Positions 46,448 to 55,017 of a stretch of 64,000 nucleotides of DNA are shown one piece after another (position 1 is the stretch's first letter; each line of letters starts with the position of its first letter). The position numbers were made by a program, and so were the translations under genes. Location: NCBI RefSeq assembly GCF_056746865.1, contig NZ_CM163382.1. The stretch is one strand, 5' to 3'. The notes below the pieces were generated by a model that saw only the letters and a program-made list of their open reading frames with translations, did not search any database and was not told the origin of the DNA.

Positions 46448-47635
46448 ATGAACTTATCCCTACGACGCTCTACCAGCGCCCTTCTTGCCTCGTCGTTGTT
46501 ATTAACCATCGGACGCGGCGCTACGCTGCCGTTTATGACCATTTACTTGAGTCGCCAGTACAGCCTGAGTGTCGATCTAATCGGTTATGCGATGACAATT
46601 GCGCTCACTATTGGCGTCGTTTTTAGCCTCGGTTTTGGTATCCTGGCGGATAAGTTCGACAAGAAACGCTATATGTTACTGGCAATTACCGCCTTCGCCT
46701 GCGGTTTTATTGCCATTCCTTTAGTGAATAACGTGACGCTGGTGGTGCTCTTTTTTGCCCTCATTAACTGCGCCTATTCCGTTTTTGCTACTGTGTTGAA
46801 AGCCTGGTTTGCCGACAATCTTTCGTCCACCAGCAAAACGAAAATCTTCTCAATCAACTACACCATGCTCAACATTGGCTGGACCATCGGTCCGCCGCTC
46901 GGCACGCTGTTGGTGATGCAGAGCATCAATCTGCCCTTTTGGCTGGCAGCTATCTGTTCCGCGTTTCCCATGCTTTTCATTCAAATTTGGGTAAAGCGCA
47001 GCGAGAAAATCATCGCCACGGAAACAGCCAGTGCCTGGTCGCCGAAAGTTTTATTACAAGATAAAGCACTGTTGTGGTTTACCTGCTCTGGCTTTCTGGC
47101 TTCTTTTGTTAGCGGCGCATTTGCTTCATGCATTTCACAATATGTGATGGTGATTGCTGATGGGGATTTTGCCGAAAAGGTGGTCGCGGTTGTTCTTCCA
47201 GTGAATGCTGCCATGGTAGTTACGTTGCAATATTCCGTGGGCCGGCGACTTAACCCGGCTAACATCCGCACGCTGATGACAGCAGGCACCCTCTGTTTCG
47301 TCATCGGTCTGGTCGGTTTTATTTTTTCCGGCAACAGCCTGCTATTGTGGGGTATGTCAGCTGCGGTATTTACTGTCGGTGAAATCATTTATGCGCCGGG
47401 CGAGTATATGTTGATTGACCATATTGCGCCGCCAGGAATGAAAGCCAGCTATTTTTCCGCTCAGTCTTTAGGCTGGCTTGGTGCGGCGATTAACCCATTA
47501 GTGAGTGGCATAGTGCTAACCAACCTGCCGCCTTCCTCGCTGTTTATCATCTTAGCGTTGGTGATCATTGCTGCGTGGGTGCTGATGTTAAAAGGAATTC
47601 GTGCAAGACCGTGGGGGCAGCCCGCGCTTTGTTGA
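46448..47635 (+). CDS. ydeE: MFS transporter
   Basis: 395-aa hydrophobic ORF. Confidence 0.85.
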   Translation: MNLSLRRSTSALLASSLLLTIGRGATLPFMTIYLSRQYSLSVDLIGYAMTIALTIGVVFSLGFGILADKFDKKRYMLLAITAFACGFIAIPLVNNVTLVVLFFALINCAYSVFATVLKAWFADNLSSTSKTKIFSINYTMLNIGWTIGPPLGTLLVMQSINLPFWLAAICSAFPMLFIQIWVKRSEKIIATETASAWSPKVLLQDKALLWFTCSGFLASFVSGAFASCISQYVMVIADGDFAEKVVAVVLPVNAAMVVTLQYSVGRRLNPANIRTLMTAGTLCFVIGLVGFIFSGNSLLLWGMSAAVFTVGEIIYAPGEYMLIDHIAPPGMKASYFSAQSLGWLGAAINPLVSGIVLTNLPPSSLFIILALVIIAAWVLMLKGIRARPWGQPALC

Positions 47636-47860
47636 TTTAAGTCGAACACAATAAAAATTTAATTCAGCCTTCGTTTAGGTTACCTCTGCTAATATCTTTC
47701 TCATTGAGATGAAAATTAAGGTAAGCGAGGAAACACACCACACCATAAACGGAGGCAAATAATGCTGGGTAGACTGGCCCCCTGAATCTCCAGACAACCA
47801 ATATCACTTAAATAAGTGATAGTCTTAATACTAGTTTTTAGACTAGTCATTGGAGAGCAG

Positions 47861-48226
47861 ATGATTGATGTCTTAGGACCGGAGAAACGCAGACGGCGTA
47901 CTACACAGGAAAAGATCGCTATTGTTCAGCAGAGTTTTGAACCGGGAATGACGGTCTCCCTTGTTGCCCGGCAACACGGTGTGGCAGCCAGCCAGTTATT
48001 TCTCTGGCGCAAGCAATACCAGGAGGGAAGTCTTACTGCTGTGGCCGCAGGAGAGCAGGTCGTTCCTGCCTCTGAACTTGCTGCTGCCATGAAGCAGATT
48101 AAAGAACTCCAGCGCCTGCTCGGCAAAAAAACGATGGAAAATGAACTCCTTAAAGAAGCCGTTGAATACGGGCGTGCAAAAAAGTGGATAGCGCACGCGC
48201 CCTTATTGCCCGGGGATGGGGAGTAA
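47861..48226 (+). CDS. insC: IS2 InsC (OrfA)
   Basis: 121 aa [26 protein letters not shown]… with GGAG RBS. Confidence 0.9.
48178..48184 (+). other. IS2 -1 programmed frameshift heptamer AAAAAAG
   Basis: A6G slippery sequence at the insC/insD overlap. Confidence 0.7.
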
Positions 48227-49089
48227 GCTTAGTCAGCCGTTGTCTCCGGGTGTCGCGTGCGCAGTTGCACGTCATTCTCAGACGAACCGATGACTGGAAA
48301 GATGGTCGCCGCAGCCGTCACTCAGATGATACGGATGTGCTTCTCCGTATACACCATGTTATCGGAGAGCTGCCCACGTATGGTTATCGTCGGGTATGGG
48401 CGCTGCTTCGCAGACAGGCCGAACTTGATGGTATGCCTGCGATCAATGCCAAACGTGTTTACCGGATCATGCGCCAGAATGCGCTGTTGCTTGAGCGAAA
48501 AACCGCTGTACCGCCATCGAAACGGGCACATACTGGCAAAGTGGCCGTGAAAGAAAGCAATCAACGATGGTGCTCTGACGGGTTCGAGTTCCGCTGTGAT
48601 AACGGAGAAAAACTGCGAGTCACGTTCGCGCTGGACTGCTGTGACCGTGAGGCACTGCACTGGGCAGTCACTACGGGCGGCTTCGACAGTGAAACAGTAC
48701 AGGACGTAATGCTGGGAGCGGTGGAACGCCGCTTCGGCAACGAGCTTCCGGCGTCTCCAGTAGAGTGGCTGACGGATAATGGTTCATGCTACCGGGCTAA
48801 TGAAACACGGCAGTTTGCCCGGATGTTGGGGCTTGAACCGAAGAACACGGCGGTGCGGAGTCCGGAGAGTAACGGCATAGCAGAGAGCTTCGTGAAAACG
48901 ATAAAGCGTGACTACATCAGTATCATGCCTAAACCAGACGGGTTAACGGCAGCAAAGAACCTTGCAGAGGCGTTCGAGCATTATAACGAATGGCATCCGC
49001 ATAGTGCACTGGGTTATCGCTCGCCACGGGAATATCTACGGCAGCGGGCCAGTAATGGGTTAAGTGATAACAGGTGTCTGGAAATATAG
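48184..49089 (+). CDS. insD: IS2 InsD (OrfB, DDE transposase)
   Basis: 301-aa ORF overlapping insC in the -1 frame. Confidence 0.9.
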
Positions 49090-49220
49090 GGGCAAATCCA
49101 CTGGGTAATATGAATGTTTTTATGGCCGTACTGGGAATAATTTTATTTTCTGGTTTTCTGGCCGCGTATTTCAGCCACAAATGGGATGACTAATGAACGG
49201 AGATAATCCCTCACCTAACC

Positions 49221-49260
49221 GGCCCCTTGTTACAGTTGTGTACAAGGGGCCTGATTTTTA
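49221..49260 (+). terminator. Rho-independent terminator downstream of mgtS
   Basis: 10-bp perfect stem GGCCCCTTGT / ACAAGGGGCC with 11-nt loop followed by TGATTTTTA. Confidence 0.75.
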
Positions 49261-49269
49261 TGACGGCAA

Positions 49270-49377
49270 AAAAAAACCGCCAGTAAACCGGCGGTGAATG
49301 CTTGCATGGATAGATTTGTGTTTTGCTTTTACGCTAACAGGCATTTTCCTGCACTGATAACGGATCGTTGACACAGT
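49270..49377 (-). ncRNA. mgrR: candidate PhoP-activated small RNA (MgrR-like)
   Basis: Minus-strand PhoP-box-type promoter (see 49402-49418) with -10-like AAAACT, about 100-nt transcript ending at minus-strand hairpin CCGCCGGTTTACTGGCGG + U9 (49268-49294); no long ORF. Confidence 0.45.
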
Positions 49378-49401
49378 AGCATCAGTTTTCTCAATGAATG
49401 T

Positions 49402-49418
49402 TAAACGGAGCTTAAACT
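49402..49418 (-). promoter_or_regulatory. PhoP-box-like direct repeat AGTTTA-N5-CGTTTA overlapping the dgcZ stop codon
   Basis: Read on minus strand; matches (T/G)GTTTA-N5-(T/G)GTTTA at 10 of 12 positions; a -10-like hexamer follows after 12 bp. Confidence 0.45.
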
Positions 49419-50302
49419 CGGTTAATCACATTTTGTTCGTCAATAAACATACAGCGATTTCTTCCGGTTTGCTTACCCTCATACATTGCCCGGTCCGCTC
49501 TTCCAATGACCACATCCAGAGGTTCTTCAGGAAATGCGCGACTCACACCTGCAGTCACGGTAATGTTGATATGCCCTTCAGAATGTGTGATGGCATGGTT
49601 ATCGACTAACTGGCAAATTCTGATACCTGCACGACATGCTTCTTCATCATTAGCCGCTTTGACAATAATGATAAATTCTTCGCCACCGTAGCGATAAACC
49701 GTTTCGTAATCGCGCGTCCAACTGGCTAAGTAAGTTGCCAGGGTGCGTAATACTACATCGCCGATTAAATGCCCGTAGGTATCATTAACCAATTTAAATC
49801 GGTCAATATCCAACAACATTAAATAAAGATTCAGAGGCTCAGCGTTGCGTAACTGATGATCAAAGGATTCATCAAGAACCCGACGACCCGGCAATCCCGT
49901 CAAAACATCCATATTGCTACGGATCGTCAGCAAATAAATTTTGTAATCGGTTAATGCCGCAGTAAAAGAAAGCAACCCTTCCTGAAAGGCGTCGAAATGC
50001 GCGTCCTGCCAGTGATTTTCAACAATAGCCAACATTAATTCCCGACCACAGTTATGCATATGTTGATGGGCAGAATCCATTAGCCGAACGTAAGGTAATT
50101 CATCGTTATCGAGTGGTCCCAGATGATCAATCCACCGACCAAACTGGCACAGTCCATAAGAATGGTTATCCGTTATTTCTGGCTTACTGGCATCTCTCGC
50201 GACCACGCTGTGAAACATACTCACCAGCCACTGGTAGTGGGCATCGATAGCCTTATTGAGATTTAACAAGATGGCATCAATTTCCGTTGTCTTCTTGATC
50301 AT
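49412..50302 (-). CDS. dgcZ: zinc-sensing diguanylate cyclase (CZB + GGDEF)
   Basis: 296 aa from MIKKTTEIDAILLNLNKAIDAHYQWLV…; GGEEF motif (…RYGGEEFIIIV…). Confidence 0.9.
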   Translation of the reverse strand: MIKKTTEIDAILLNLNKAIDAHYQWLVSMFHSVVARDASKPEITDNHSYGLCQFGRWIDHLGPLDNDELPYVRLMDSAHQHMHNCGRELMLAIVENHWQDAHFDAFQEGLLSFTAALTDYKIYLLTIRSNMDVLTGLPGRRVLDESFDHQLRNAEPLNLYLMLLDIDRFKLVNDTYGHLIGDVVLRTLATYLASWTRDYETVYRYGGEEFIIIVKAANDEEACRAGIRICQLVDNHAITHSEGHINITVTAGVSRAFPEEPLDVVIGRADRAMYEGKQTGRNRCMFIDEQNVINRV

Positions 50303-50556
50303 TGCCACTCCTTTTTCACAGTTCCTTGTGCGCGCTATTCTAACGAGAGAAAAGCAAAATTACGTCAATATTTTCATAGAAATCCGAAGTTATGAGTCAT
50401 CTCTGAGATAACATTGTGATTTGAAACAAAATCAGCAGATAAAAAAGTGTTTAATTCTGTAAATTAAGCCTGCATTATCGCAATTAAAAGGATGACAAAT
50501 AGCATAAACCAATACCCTAATGGCCCAGTAGTTCAGGCCATCAGGCTCATTTATTT

Positions 50557-50949
50557 TTATTTCTGCAAATGAGTGACCCGAACGACGGCCGGCGCGCTTT
50601 TCTTATCCAGACTGCCGCTAATGTTGATCATCTGGTCCGGCTGAACTTCTCGTCCATCAAAGACTGCCGCAGGAATAACAACATTAATTTCACCGCTCTT
50701 ATCGCGAAAAACGTAACGGTCCTCTCCTTTGTGAGAAATCAAATTACCGCGTAGTGAAACCGAAGCGCCATCATGCATGGTTTTTGCGAAATCTACGGTC
50801 ATTTTTTTTGCATCATCGGTTCCGCGATAGCCATCTTCTATTGCATGAGGCGGCGGTGGCGCTGCATCCTGTTTTAAACCGCCCTGGTCATCTGCCAACG
50901 CATAAGGCATGACAAGAAAACTTGCTAATACAATGGCCTGAAATTTCAT
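50557..50949 (-). CDS. ydeI: periplasmic OB-fold (BOF/YgiW family) stress protein
   Basis: 130-aa ORF with signal peptide. Confidence 0.85.
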
Positions 50950-51191
50950 ACTGACTCCTTAATTGCGTTTGGTTTGACTTATTAAGTCTGGTTGCTATTT
51001 TTATAATTGACAAATAAGAATACTGCCAATTGTTATAAGGCATTTAAAATCAGGCAACTAGCTGTCAAATATTAAGAGAATTTAACTCACTAAAGTAAGA
51101 AGAAGATTAAAGAGTCTTAAACATATTTCAGAACAATCAGATTTATAAATTTGAAAATTATTATAACGGAAGGGTATACAAAAAAAGTAAT

Positions 51192-51269
51192 TTTGCTGGC
51201 GACTGCGAAACGGCATTCGCATTAGCGGTGAAGTTTGCCCCCACCCAGCTGCTGCAATTACTGCTCTAA
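51192..51269 (+). pseudogene. possible 3'-terminal remnant of a deleted ydeJ-like (CinA C-terminal-domain) gene
   Basis: Plus-strand frame without start codon ends …FAGDCETAFALAVKFAPTQLLQLLL* just before a strong hairpin; loosely resembles CinA/PncC-type C-termini; no full ORF present. Confidence 0.3.
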
Positions 51270-51272
51270 CCA

Positions 51273-51302
51273 GGCTGGCCTGGCGATATCTCCAGGCCAG
51301 CC
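51273..51302. terminator. 11-bp perfect inverted repeat GGCTGGCCTGG-N8-CCAGGCCAGCC between gene remnant and dcp
   Basis: Read from sequence; 12 bp beyond dcp stop; U-richer on plus strand. Confidence 0.5.
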
Positions 51303-51313
51303 ATTGGTGGTGT

Positions 51314-53359
51314 TTATATGTTCAAGCCACGATGTTGCAGCATCGGCATAATCTGAGGTGCCTTACCGCGCCATTGTCGATACAGGCGTTCCAGATCTTC
51401 GCTGTTACCTCTGGAAAGAATCGCCTCGCGAAAACGCCGCCCATTTTCACGCGTTAATCCGCCCTGCTCAACAAACCACTGGTAACCATCATCGGCCAAC
51501 ATTTGCGTCCACAGATAAGCGTAATAACCTGCGGCATATCCGCCACCAAAAATATGGGCGAAATAACTGCTGCGATAGCGTGGCGGTATAGCGGGAAGAT
51601 CCATATTTTCTGCCACCAGCGCCCGCAATTCGAAATCATCGACATCCTGCATTGCTTCGTTTTCTTCCAGGCAATGCCAGCGCATATCGAGAAGTGCGGC
51701 GCTAAGCAGTTCGCTCATCTCATACCCTTTATTGAACAGGCTGGCATTACGCATTTTCTGTTGCAGTTCGTCAGGCATTGCTGCCCCGCTCTGATAATGC
51801 CGGGCGTAGCGAGCGAATACCTGCGGATGCGTTGCCCAGTGTTCGTTGATTTGCGACGGAAATTCGACAAAATCACGCGGCGTGTTGGTGCCGGAAAGTG
51901 TGGCATAACGCTGGCGGGCAAAGAGGCCGTGCAACGTATGACCAAATTCATGGAATAAGGTTATGACATCATCCCAGAGTAACAACGCAGGCTCACCGGC
52001 AGCGGGTTTCTGATAATTGCAGACGTTATAAATTACCGGATGCGTTTCATTAAGCGTTGATTGCTCAACAAAATTGCCCATCCATGCACCGCCGCTTTTT
52101 GAATCACGGGCGAAGAAATCACCGTAAAATAACGCCAGCCCCACGCCATTATGATCAAAAATTTCCCATACACGAACGTCAGGATGGTAGACAGGAATAT
52201 CAAAACGTTCGACAAACTTAATACCGAAGAGCTGATTCGCGGTCCAGAATACACCTTCATTCAACACCGTGTTTAATTCAAAATATGGCTTGAGCTGCGA
52301 TTCATCGAGATCGAATTTCTCACGTCTTACCTGCTCGGCATAAAATGCCCAGTCCCACGGCTGCGCGCTAAACCCGCCCTGCTGCTTATCGATAACCGCC
52401 TGTATGGAGGCTAATTCATCGCTCGCACGTTGACGCGCCGCTGGAACAATTTCCCGCATAAAGTTGAGTGCTGCTTCTGGCGTTTTTGCCATCTGATCGG
52501 CGATTTTCCATGCGGCATAATGAGGGAAACCAAGCAGTTTCGCCTGCTGCGCGCGGATCTCCACCAGACGTTGAATGATAGCGCGGGTATCATTGGCATC
52601 ATTTTTTTCCGCTCGCGTCCAGCCCGCAGTGAACAGTTTTTCACGCGTCGCGCGATCGCGCAGTTCAGCAAGCGCTGGTTGCTGGGTGGTATTCAGCAAC
52701 GGAATCAGCCATTTGTTATCCAGACCTTTCTCGCGAGCCGCCTCTGCCGCCAGCGCAATCTCTTGCTCACTCATTCCTGCCAGCTGCGCGAAATCGTTCA
52801 CAACCAGACCGCCGGATTTATTTGCTGCCAGTAACCGCTGGTTAAACTGGCTGGTCAGGGTCGCAGCTTCTGTATTCAGGACTTTTAATTTTGCTTTATC
52901 AGCTTGTGCAAGTTTGGCTCCGGCAAGGACAAAACGTTGATGAATGACCTCCACCAGGCGGATGGATTCACTATCAAGTCCCAGGGATTCACGGCGTTGC
53001 CAGACAGCATCTACCCGCGCGAATAATTCACCGTTCAGATAGATATCATTAGCCAGTTCCGCCAGTTCAGCGGAAAACTGTTCATCAAGACGCTGTAATT
53101 CATCATTAGTATGCGCCGCAGTCATCGCAAAAAAGACGCTGGTAACGCGGGTAAGTAATTCTCCGCTTTGTTCCAGTGCCAGAATAGTATTGTTGAAATC
53201 AGGTGTTTGCGGGTTAAGCGCGATGGCAGCAATTTCTGCCCGCTTTTGCTGCATTCCCTCATCGAATGCCGGGCGATAGTGATGATTGGCAATTTGATCA
53301 AAATGGGGAGCCAGATACGGCAGTGTGCTTTGCACAAGGAAAGGATTCATTGTTGTCAT
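51314..53359 (-). CDS. dcp: dipeptidyl carboxypeptidase II (M3 metallopeptidase)
   Basis: 681 aa from MTTMNPFLVQSTLPYLAPHFDQI…; HEFGH zinc motif (…TLFHEFGHTLHG…). Confidence 0.9.
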   Translation of the reverse strand: MTTMNPFLVQSTLPYLAPHFDQIANHHYRPAFDEGMQQKRAEIAAIALNPQTPDFNNTILALEQSGELLTRVTSVFFAMTAAHTNDELQRLDEQFSAELAELANDIYLNGELFARVDAVWQRRESLGLDSESIRLVEVIHQRFVLAGAKLAQADKAKLKVLNTEAATLTSQFNQRLLAANKSGGLVVNDFAQLAGMSEQEIALAAEAAREKGLDNKWLIPLLNTTQQPALAELRDRATREKLFTAGWTRAEKNDANDTRAIIQRLVEIRAQQAKLLGFPHYAAWKIADQMAKTPEAALNFMREIVPAARQRASDELASIQAVIDKQQGGFSAQPWDWAFYAEQVRREKFDLDESQLKPYFELNTVLNEGVFWTANQLFGIKFVERFDIPVYHPDVRVWEIFDHNGVGLALFYGDFFARDSKSGGAWMGNFVEQSTLNETHPVIYNVCNYQKPAAGEPALLLWDDVITLFHEFGHTLHGLFARQRYATLSGTNTPRDFVEFPSQINEHWATHPQVFARYARHYQSGAAMPDELQQKMRNASLFNKGYEMSELLSAALLDMRWHCLEENEAMQDVDDFELRALVAENMDLPAIPPRYRSSYFAHIFGGGYAAGYYAYLWTQMLADDGYQWFVEQGGLTRENGRRFREAILSRGNSEDLERLYRQWRGKAPQIMPMLQHRGLNI

Positions 53360-53495
53360 TTTCTTCTCCTGAACGCGAGGTGTTCCATAGCGTAGGCTTA
53401 CTGATAACGGAGTGCAATCTTGCAAACCAGTATTACCCGCTCTTAAGCATCACGTGCTATGTTATTGACACACAAAAGCGTTGAGGAACAGTGAG

Positions 53496-54242
53496 ATGAT
53501 CGTTTTAGTAACTGGAGCAACGGCAGGTTTTGGTGAATGCATTACTCGTCGTTTTATTCAACAAGGGCATAAAGTTATCGCCACTGGCCGTCGCCAGGAG
53601 CGGTTGCAGGAGTTAAAAGACGAACTGGGAGATAATCTTTATATCGCCCAACTGGACGTTCGCAACCGCGCCGCTATTGAAGAGATGCTGGCATCGCTTC
53701 CTGCCGAGTGGAGCAATATTGATATCCTGGTAAATAATGCCGGCCTGGCGTTGGGCATGGAGCCTGCGCATAAAGCCAGCGTTGAAGACTGGGAAACGAT
53801 GATTGATACCAACAATAAAGGCCTGGTATATATGACGCGCGCCGTCTTACCGGGTATGGTTGAACGTAATCATGGTCATATTATTAACATTGGCTCAACG
53901 GCAGGTAGCTGGCCGTATGCCGGTGGTAACGTTTACGGTGCGACGAAAGCGTTTGTTCGTCAGTTTAGCCTGAATCTGCGTACGGACCTGCATGGTACGG
54001 CGGTGCGCGTCACCGACATCGAACCGGGTCTGGTGGGTGGCACCGAGTTTTCCAATGTCCGCTTTAAAGGCGATGACGGTAAAGCGGAAAAAACCTATCA
54101 AAATACCGTTGCATTGACGCCAGAAGATGTCAGCGAAGCCGTCTGGTGGGTATCAACGCTGCCTGCTCACGTTAATATCAATACCCTGGAAATGATGCCG
54201 GTTACCCAAAGCTATGCCGGACTGAATGTCCACCGTCAGTAA
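53496..54242 (+). CDS. ydfG: NADP-dependent 3-hydroxy acid dehydrogenase (SDR)
   Basis: 248 aa from MIVLVTGATAGFGECITRRF…; Rossmann motif. Confidence 0.9.
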   Translation: MIVLVTGATAGFGECITRRFIQQGHKVIATGRRQERLQELKDELGDNLYIAQLDVRNRAAIEEMLASLPAEWSNIDILVNNAGLALGMEPAHKASVEDWETMIDTNNKGLVYMTRAVLPGMVERNHGHIINIGSTAGSWPYAGGNVYGATKAFVRQFSLNLRTDLHGTAVRVTDIEPGLVGGTEFSNVRFKGDDGKAEKTYQNTVALTPEDVSEAVWWVSTLPAHVNINTLEMMPVTQSYAGLNVHRQ

Positions 54243-54250
54243 TTTTTATA

Positions 54251-54275
54251 CCCGGCGTAACTGCCGGGTTATTGC
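54251..54275 (+). terminator. Rho-independent terminator after ydfG
   Basis: CCCGGC-gtaact-GCCGGG stem followed by TTATTGCTT. Confidence 0.6.
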
Positions 54276-54330
54276 TTGTCACAAAAAAGTGGTAGACTCA
54301 TGCAGTTAACTCACTCACAAGCAAGAACGA

Positions 54331-55017
54331 ATGACCGTCGAAACGCAACTTAATCCCACACAGCCTGTCAATCAGCAGATTTATCGTATTCTTCGTCGCG
54401 ACATTGTCCATTGCCTGATTGCACCAGGCACACCGTTGTCGGAAAAAGAAGTTTCTGTTCGTTTCAATGTGTCACGCCAGCCGGTTCGTGAAGCCTTTAT
54501 TAAACTGGCGGAAAACGGCCTGATTCAAATTCGTCCGCAGCGTGGCAGCTACGTCAACAAAATTTCCATGGCCCAGGTGCGCAACGGCAGTTTTATCCGT
54601 CAGGCCATTGAGTGCGCGGTGGCGCGTCGGGCGGCGAGCATGATTACCGAAAGCCAGTGCTACCAACTGGAACAAAATCTTCACCAGCAACGCATTGCCA
54701 TTGAGCGCAAGCAACTGGATGATTTTTTTGAACTTGATGACAACTTCCATCAACTCCTGACGCAGATTGCCGACTGTCAACTGGCGTGGGATACCATTGA
54801 GAACCTGAAAGCGACCGTTGATCGCGTGCGCTATATGAGTTTCGACCACGTTTCTCCACCAGAAATGCTGTTACGCCAGCATCTTGAGATTTTCTCTGCC
54901 CTGCAAAAACGTGATGGCGATGCGGTAGAACGTGCAATGACGCAACATTTGCAGGAAATCAGCGAATCCGTGCGCCAGATCCGCCAGGAAAACAGCGACT
55001 GGTTTAGCGAAGAGTAA
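54331..55017 (+). CDS. rspR: GntR/FadR-family transcriptional regulator
   Basis: 228-aa ORF with N-terminal winged HTH (…[19 protein letters not shown]…). Confidence 0.85.

Follow-up and report, generated by a model that had tools for sequence, protein, structure and literature searches.

The short ydeI–dcp interval of an Escherichia coli chromosome as the scar of a 475-bp deletion in ydeJ

In the stretch of E. coli chromosome considered here (64,000 nucleotides, hereafter the window), the genes ydeI and dcp are separated by an interval of 364 bp (50950-51313), and the question raised by this locus is whether a gene has been lost from between them or whether the interval has always been short. 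The left neighbour, ydeI (50557-50949, minus strand), is intact, with an ORF of 130 aa that matches NCBIfam NF007471 over its full length (258.9 bits), is annotated as ydeI in near-identical genomes and encodes the YdeI/YgiW OB-fold stress protein. The right neighbour, dcp (51314-53359, minus strand), was assigned from its ORF and from the dcp annotation of the compared genomes, encodes the peptidyl-dipeptidase Dcp (681 aa; the annotated start lies 22 codons inside the ORF as listed) and is convergent with the former ydeJ. In K-12 MG1655 a complete ydeJ, a plus-strand gene of 519 bp and 172 codons, is annotated between the two, in line with the gene of roughly 170 codons that a first-pass annotation of the window had placed here for K-12. 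The same annotation had described the interval of the window as holding no ORF of 60 codons or more, and this holds, the longest ORF that touches it being 51 aa. YdeJ is a single-domain PncC/CinA paralogue (TIGR00199, PF02464), and the K-12 protein matches both NF002972 (positions 1-171) and TIGR00199 over full length.

The apparent loss of ydeJ had been proposed together with two ways of checking it, an alignment of 50950-51313 with the ydeI–dcp interval of K-12 and a TBLASTN search with YdeJ, and both support the proposal. In the alignments with K-12 and with O157:H7, the window shows a single, clean gap of 475 bp with homologous sequence on both sides, corresponding to positions 1290-1764 of the K-12 locus (L001), in which ydeJ occupies 1326-1844. 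The missing segment thus comprises the 36 bp upstream of the GTG start codon, ydeJ codons 1-146 and the first base of codon 147. When K-12 YdeJ is compared with the whole window by TBLASTN, only residues 147-172 find a match, at 51189-51266 (77% identity, E 1.7e-7), and the deleted 475 bp have no meaningful match elsewhere in the 64 kb. Almost certainly, then, ydeJ (known too as rdsA) was destroyed by a single old deletion of 475 bp, of which the interval is the scar, and none of the observations speaks against this deletion. No description of it turned up in searches of the literature; the remnant of the gene is nevertheless already on record in public genome annotation and is an ordinary feature.

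The junction itself, placed by the K-12 alignments, falls between 51189 and 51190 and reads ..AAAAAAAGTA on the left side and ATTTTGCTGG.. on the right, with an ambiguity of one nucleotide (A). Since this single nucleotide is all that the two ends share, and no repeat able to guide homologous or slipped recombination is present, illegitimate end-joining is likely: the deletion, which reaches from a point 36 bp ahead of the ydeJ start codon into the first base of codon 147, would have had its ends joined by non-homologous recombination, a mechanism that we infer from the junction alone. To the left of the junction the window retains 240 bp of the ydeI–ydeJ intergenic region (50950-51189), which include the ydeI 5' region and any surviving part of a ydeJ promoter and leader, and which stop 36 bp short of the old ydeJ start.

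A short interval and a long one can be derived from each other in either direction, and the direction was read from the relatives of E. coli. YdeJ orthologues were found by protein search across the Enterobacteriaceae (E. fergusonii, Salmonella, Citrobacter, Klebsiella, Enterobacter, Lelliottia, Kosakonia and others), and the order ydeI–ydeJ–dcp–ydfG is intact in three outgroups, namely a divergent Escherichia (GCA_020783085.1, 87% protein identity), an E. fergusonii-type contig and Salmonella enterica. That ydeJ might instead have been gained by insertion in K-12-type lineages, the short interval being ancestral, could appeal to the fact that about one third of E. coli are without the gene, including early-branching ExPEC-type lineages such as UTI89, but this is refuted by the outgroup synteny and by the distribution of the orthologues; moreover, the window still carries the last 25 ydeJ codons and the stop in register with K-12, and an insertion cannot explain a matching 3' end that was there before it. 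We regard a gain as extremely improbable. Because outgroup synteny is intact and the 3' remnant is in register with K-12, the short interval is, on this comparative sequence evidence, a derived loss; K-12 did not gain the gene. A degenerate DNA pattern for the peptide HFAGDCET, run over genome contigs, gave two matches only, both in unrelated MAGs. In Salmonella (locus L017, 3631-3813) an additional gene of 60 aa with a KGG domain lies between ydeJ and dcp, and Escherichia is without it.

The distribution of the deletion was followed in 5,426 complete E. coli genomes with a junction probe of 91 nt (51150-51240), for which genomes of the intact type cannot seed a match. The locus is present in 5,418 genomes and the body of ydeJ in 3,618, while the probe is found contiguous in 1,773; genomes with any match to the probe (1,775) and those of the ydeJ-body class together make up 5,393 of the 5,418 with the locus. 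A gap produced by sequencing or assembly of the window would be hard to reconcile with the same junction in 1,773 independently assembled complete genomes, or with the surrounding 12.9 kb, which recur at 100% identity in many complete genomes (M00057 and SCU-105 among them) and at 99.1% in PCN033; no point speaks in favour of such an artefact, which is refuted and can be dismissed for all practical purposes. We take PCN033 to be an ExPEC strain of phylogroup D.

Among the deletion alleles that were aligned, all seven share the junction to the base, so that a single origin is the natural reading. The carriers do look diverse, the window and the B19429/WP9, ECE313 and UTI89 types differing by 1.5-2.5% in the flanks, as might be expected of repeated, independent losses of ydeJ at a hotspot for deletion. 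Recurrence of this kind is very unlikely, however, given that the inspected alleles share not only the junction to the base but also derived variants by it (e.g., GTA, against GCA in the intact E. coli alleles and in the outgroup locus L013), and that a microhomology of 1 nt offers no repeat to steer recurrent identical deletions. Junction identity and linked variants together argue for a derived allele that would have arisen once and is now found in about one third of sequenced E. coli, although on such data vertical descent and spread by recombination between lineages are not separable.

The deletion alleles are not all alike in what surrounds the junction. The ydeI body and the intergenic region are found in 4,371 of the 5,426 genomes, and from this count about 730 of the junction-bearing genomes look like the window, while about 1,050 are also without ydeI. 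In the latter, a second, nested deletion of 504 bp, equivalent to 50644-51147 of the window and bounded by an AA microhomology (loci L003 and L007), takes out ydeI codons 1-101 and most of the ydeI–ydeJ intergenic region, leaving two back-to-back pseudogene stubs. Examples of this double-deletion allele are UTI89, Ecol_244, MS1737 and the Nissle-derived SYNB1934; in the alleles of the UTI89/Ecol_244/MS1737 type the ydeJ junction and remnant are identical to those of the window, but ydeI, intact in the window, is truncated by the additional deletion. The 504-bp deletion came later than the loss of ydeJ, in UTI89-type (B2) lineages. A further variant is found in E. coli AF206, where an IS1 (locus L009, 781-1478) lies in the retained interval (window-equivalent 50950-51189) of a genome that over 50400-51900 otherwise matches the window at 100% identity.

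What the deletion left of the gene itself is an 80-nt 3' remnant (51190-51269, plus strand), delimited by the TBLASTN match to YdeJ residues 147-172, by translation and by a PGAP pseudogene at the same place. It consists of 2 nt of codon 147, codons 148-172 and the stop TAA at 51267-51269, and the plus-strand frame ending there reads ...KKSNFAGDCETAFALAVKFAPTQLLQLLL (also given as ...NFAGDCETAFALAVKFAPTQLLQLLL), as in the first-pass annotation, which had seen the last 25 or so codons of a plus-strand frame ending just before a hairpin. No start codon and no ribosome-binding site were found for it, the sequence upstream in frame leading to a stop with no usable start, and no ORF of at least 20 aa ends at 51269. 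In comparison with intact ydeJ (b1537; rdsA in Salmonella; NF002972/TIGR00199/PF02464 CinA), the remnant occupies the same place, between ydeI and dcp and convergent with dcp, as in outgroups with the same synteny, and its last 25 codons and stop align in frame; it is, however, without 85% of the coding sequence, the start codon and the ribosome-binding site. The conserved PncC-type blocks of the family (e.g., the ESCTGG region) all lie within the deleted part, which leaves the remnant unable to encode the protein. Because a complete ORF of about 172 codons is lacking and similarity does not extend over full-length YdeJ with its PncC-type blocks (only aa 147-172 align), the feature does not belong to the ydeJ/rdsA gene family. 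An intact orthologue at the locus in relatives and outgroups, a single clean gap and relaxed constraint, as expected of a pseudogene derived by deletion, are all found here, and by its sequence the feature is such a remnant, not a functional family member. The RefSeq/PGAP annotation agrees, with a pseudogene of 81 nt, “incomplete; missing N-terminus”, at the same place in KK05-19, B19429, WP9-S17-ESBL-11, ECE313 and others. The same 81-nt feature is entered as “2-oxo-tetronate isomerase; incomplete; missing N-terminus” under ACZ0NF_RS22400 in KK05-19 and H7R47_RS26510 in WP9-S17-ESBL-11; KK05-19 is 99.9% identical to the window with no difference of substance, the window carrying the KK05-19 pseudogene allele.

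The divergence of the window from K-12 along the locus is consistent with decay of the relic: it amounts to 1.3% in ydeI and 1.7% in the 3' end of dcp, to 8.4% in the retained intergenic region and 8.8% in the ydeJ remnant, and to no mismatch and one indel in the 44-bp spacer that holds the hairpin. The remnant differs from K-12 by five replacement and two silent changes, numbers that give weak statistics over only 80 nt. The replacements affect five of the 25 residues of the tail (V→A, L→F, R→K, L→P and A→T), as against three of 25 in the outgroup that is 87% identical. Since the deletion allele of WP9 still encodes the K-12 residues exactly, since the outgroup locus L013 has the K-12 state at all five changed positions, and since the tail of the window is more altered than that of the outgroup, the five replacements arose after the deletion, in the lineage of the window. 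The divergence is what neutral decay would look like, with the caution due to 80 nt, and the 3' end, left with neither start codon nor ribosome-binding site, is a non-coding relic that has been drifting at the neutral intergenic rate. Over the 46 bp to the left of the junction, all deletion alleles differ from K-12 and O157 by approximately nine substitutions. A burst of mutation linked to the deletion was considered for this segment (51144-51189, compared with 1244-1289 of the K-12 locus L001) and rejected; as judged from L013, the changes are split between the K-12/O157 and the deletion lineages, which points to ordinary, fast intergenic drift.

The spacer of 44 bp between the ydeJ stop (TAA, 51267-51269) and the convergent dcp stop (TAA on the minus strand, 51316-51314) contains, as the first-pass annotation had noted and as sequence and folding confirm, a perfect GC-rich hairpin of 11 bp with a loop of 8 nt (51273-51302; stem 51273-51283 and 51292-51302), which starts 3 nt after the ydeJ stop codon and ends 11 nt from that of dcp. 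Its predicted fold has an energy of –29.2 kcal/mol on the plus strand and –28.8 on the minus strand, with z = –4.56 on both, and it is present in a single copy in the 64-kb window when up to 3 mismatches are allowed (0 matches expected by chance). A dispersed extragenic palindrome of the REP/BIME type was rejected on this single copy in the window and on searches including the hairpin, which found a median of 1 place per genome. The stem varies among alleles: it has 10 bp in K-12 and a G·A mismatch in O157, where ydeJ is intact, and in the UTI89-type alleles it has a G·U pair on the plus strand that corresponds to a C·A mismatch on the minus strand.

The hairpin had been called the terminator of ydeJ, and of this description the hairpin stands, as does its being U-richer on the plus strand: the tail after the stem is AUUGGUGGUGUUUAUAUG on the plus strand, with U at 9 of 18 positions, and UGGUUAGAGCAGUAAUUG on the minus strand, with U at 6 of 18. 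The part concerning termination fares less well. A GC-rich stem-loop does directly follow the stop codon, but the tails next to the stem, AUUGGUGG.. on the plus and UGGUUAGA.. on the minus strand, contain no canonical U-tract, and a scan for intrinsic terminators (a U-tract of at least 5 U in the 8 nt right after the stem) called the hairpin on neither strand, here or in K-12; moreover, the spacer lies between convergent stops and is shared with dcp. In having a stable GC-rich hairpin near both stops, equal on both strands, the locus resembles a bidirectional intrinsic terminator between convergent genes, from which it differs in the lack of a U run after the stem on either strand and of a consensus call. 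The hairpin may plausibly have been a terminator of the deleted ydeJ. The deleted segment does not include it, and this suffices to explain why it survives, in the short spacer shared with the convergent dcp. No gene other than dcp could use it today, perhaps as a 3'-end structure, and the hairpin may be kept because of dcp.

If the segment upstream of the junction, the relic and the hairpin have all been retained, it can be asked whether they do anything together. It is conceivable that the ydeJ promoter and leader, fused to the 80-nt tail and the hairpin, give rise to a new short transcript, a small RNA or the mRNA of a micropeptide, that is kept for its function. About 240 bp upstream of the junction are kept and the deletion begins 36 bp before the old start, so that the ydeJ promoter could survive; the hairpin 3' of the remnant is very stable; and the remnant persists in all 1,773 deletion genomes. 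Set against this, an Rfam scan of 47000-55000 (E ≤ 1) finds no family in 50950-51313, the stop of the remnant closes no ORF of 20 aa or longer, and promoter-like matches in the interval, in the window and in K-12, are not above the expectation from shuffled sequence. The remnant diverges at the intergenic rate, mostly by replacement changes, and a conserved transcription unit would be expected neither to have lost its upstream part, to within 42 bp of the junction, in the roughly 1,050 genomes that also lack ydeI, nor to contain an IS1, as the interval of AF206 does. We thus hold it highly doubtful that the scar is anything but inert. The ydeJ/rdsA promoter has been reported as supercoiling-sensitive in Salmonella (PMC7387798), and the more specific proposal, that such a promoter survives here and drives a short non-coding transcript made of leader, 80-nt relic and hairpin, is a long shot; if it were true, it would be a case of a small RNA born from a gene deletion, in a third of E. 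coli. The ydeI–ydeJ spacer is also a reported target of RcdA (PMC3535384); no exact match to the RcdA box TTGTnnACA occurs in the interval of the window or of K-12, where only sites with one mismatch are found.

Two observations concern the neighbourhood of the locus. The sole Rfam match in 47000-55000 is STnc560/MgrR (49187-49400, minus strand; 281 bits, E 3.6e-65); STnc560 is an Hfq-binding sRNA, and the match sits in the MgrR region between mgtS and dgcZ. The small gene mgtS is itself interrupted by an IS2 of 1,331 bp (47770-49100; mgtS flanks 47762-47769 and 49101-49193). The element sits behind ATGCTGGG, is flanked by a target duplication of 5 bp, CTGGG (47765-47769 and 49101-49105), and cuts the remainder of the 31-codon ORF off from its start codon and promoter. 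A probe of 101 nt over the right IS2 junction is contiguous in none of the 5,426 complete E. coli genomes, so that this insertion appears private to the strain of the window.

Turning to the function of the lost gene, YdeJ is reported to have no catalytic activity in NMN deamidation (PMC3855486). Its renaming as RdsA in Salmonella reflects both the more negatively supercoiled DNA of a deletion mutant and the supercoiling sensitivity of the gene's promoter (PMC7387798). NCBIfam NF002972, and hence PGAP, names the protein “2-oxo-tetronate isomerase” despite its PncC/CinA domain; EC 5.3.1.35 has been assigned to b2739 (PMC12506659), and the product name looks misapplied on ydeJ and on its pseudogene remnants. 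Taken by itself, the deletion matters little, being a routine case of an accessory-like chromosomal gene that is polymorphic for presence or absence. It does mean, however, that natural ydeJ/rdsA nulls make up about one third of the sequenced E. coli and that about one fifth are also without ydeI; if RdsA restrains negative supercoiling in E. coli too, the deletion strains would be ready-made material with which to test the importance of the gene.
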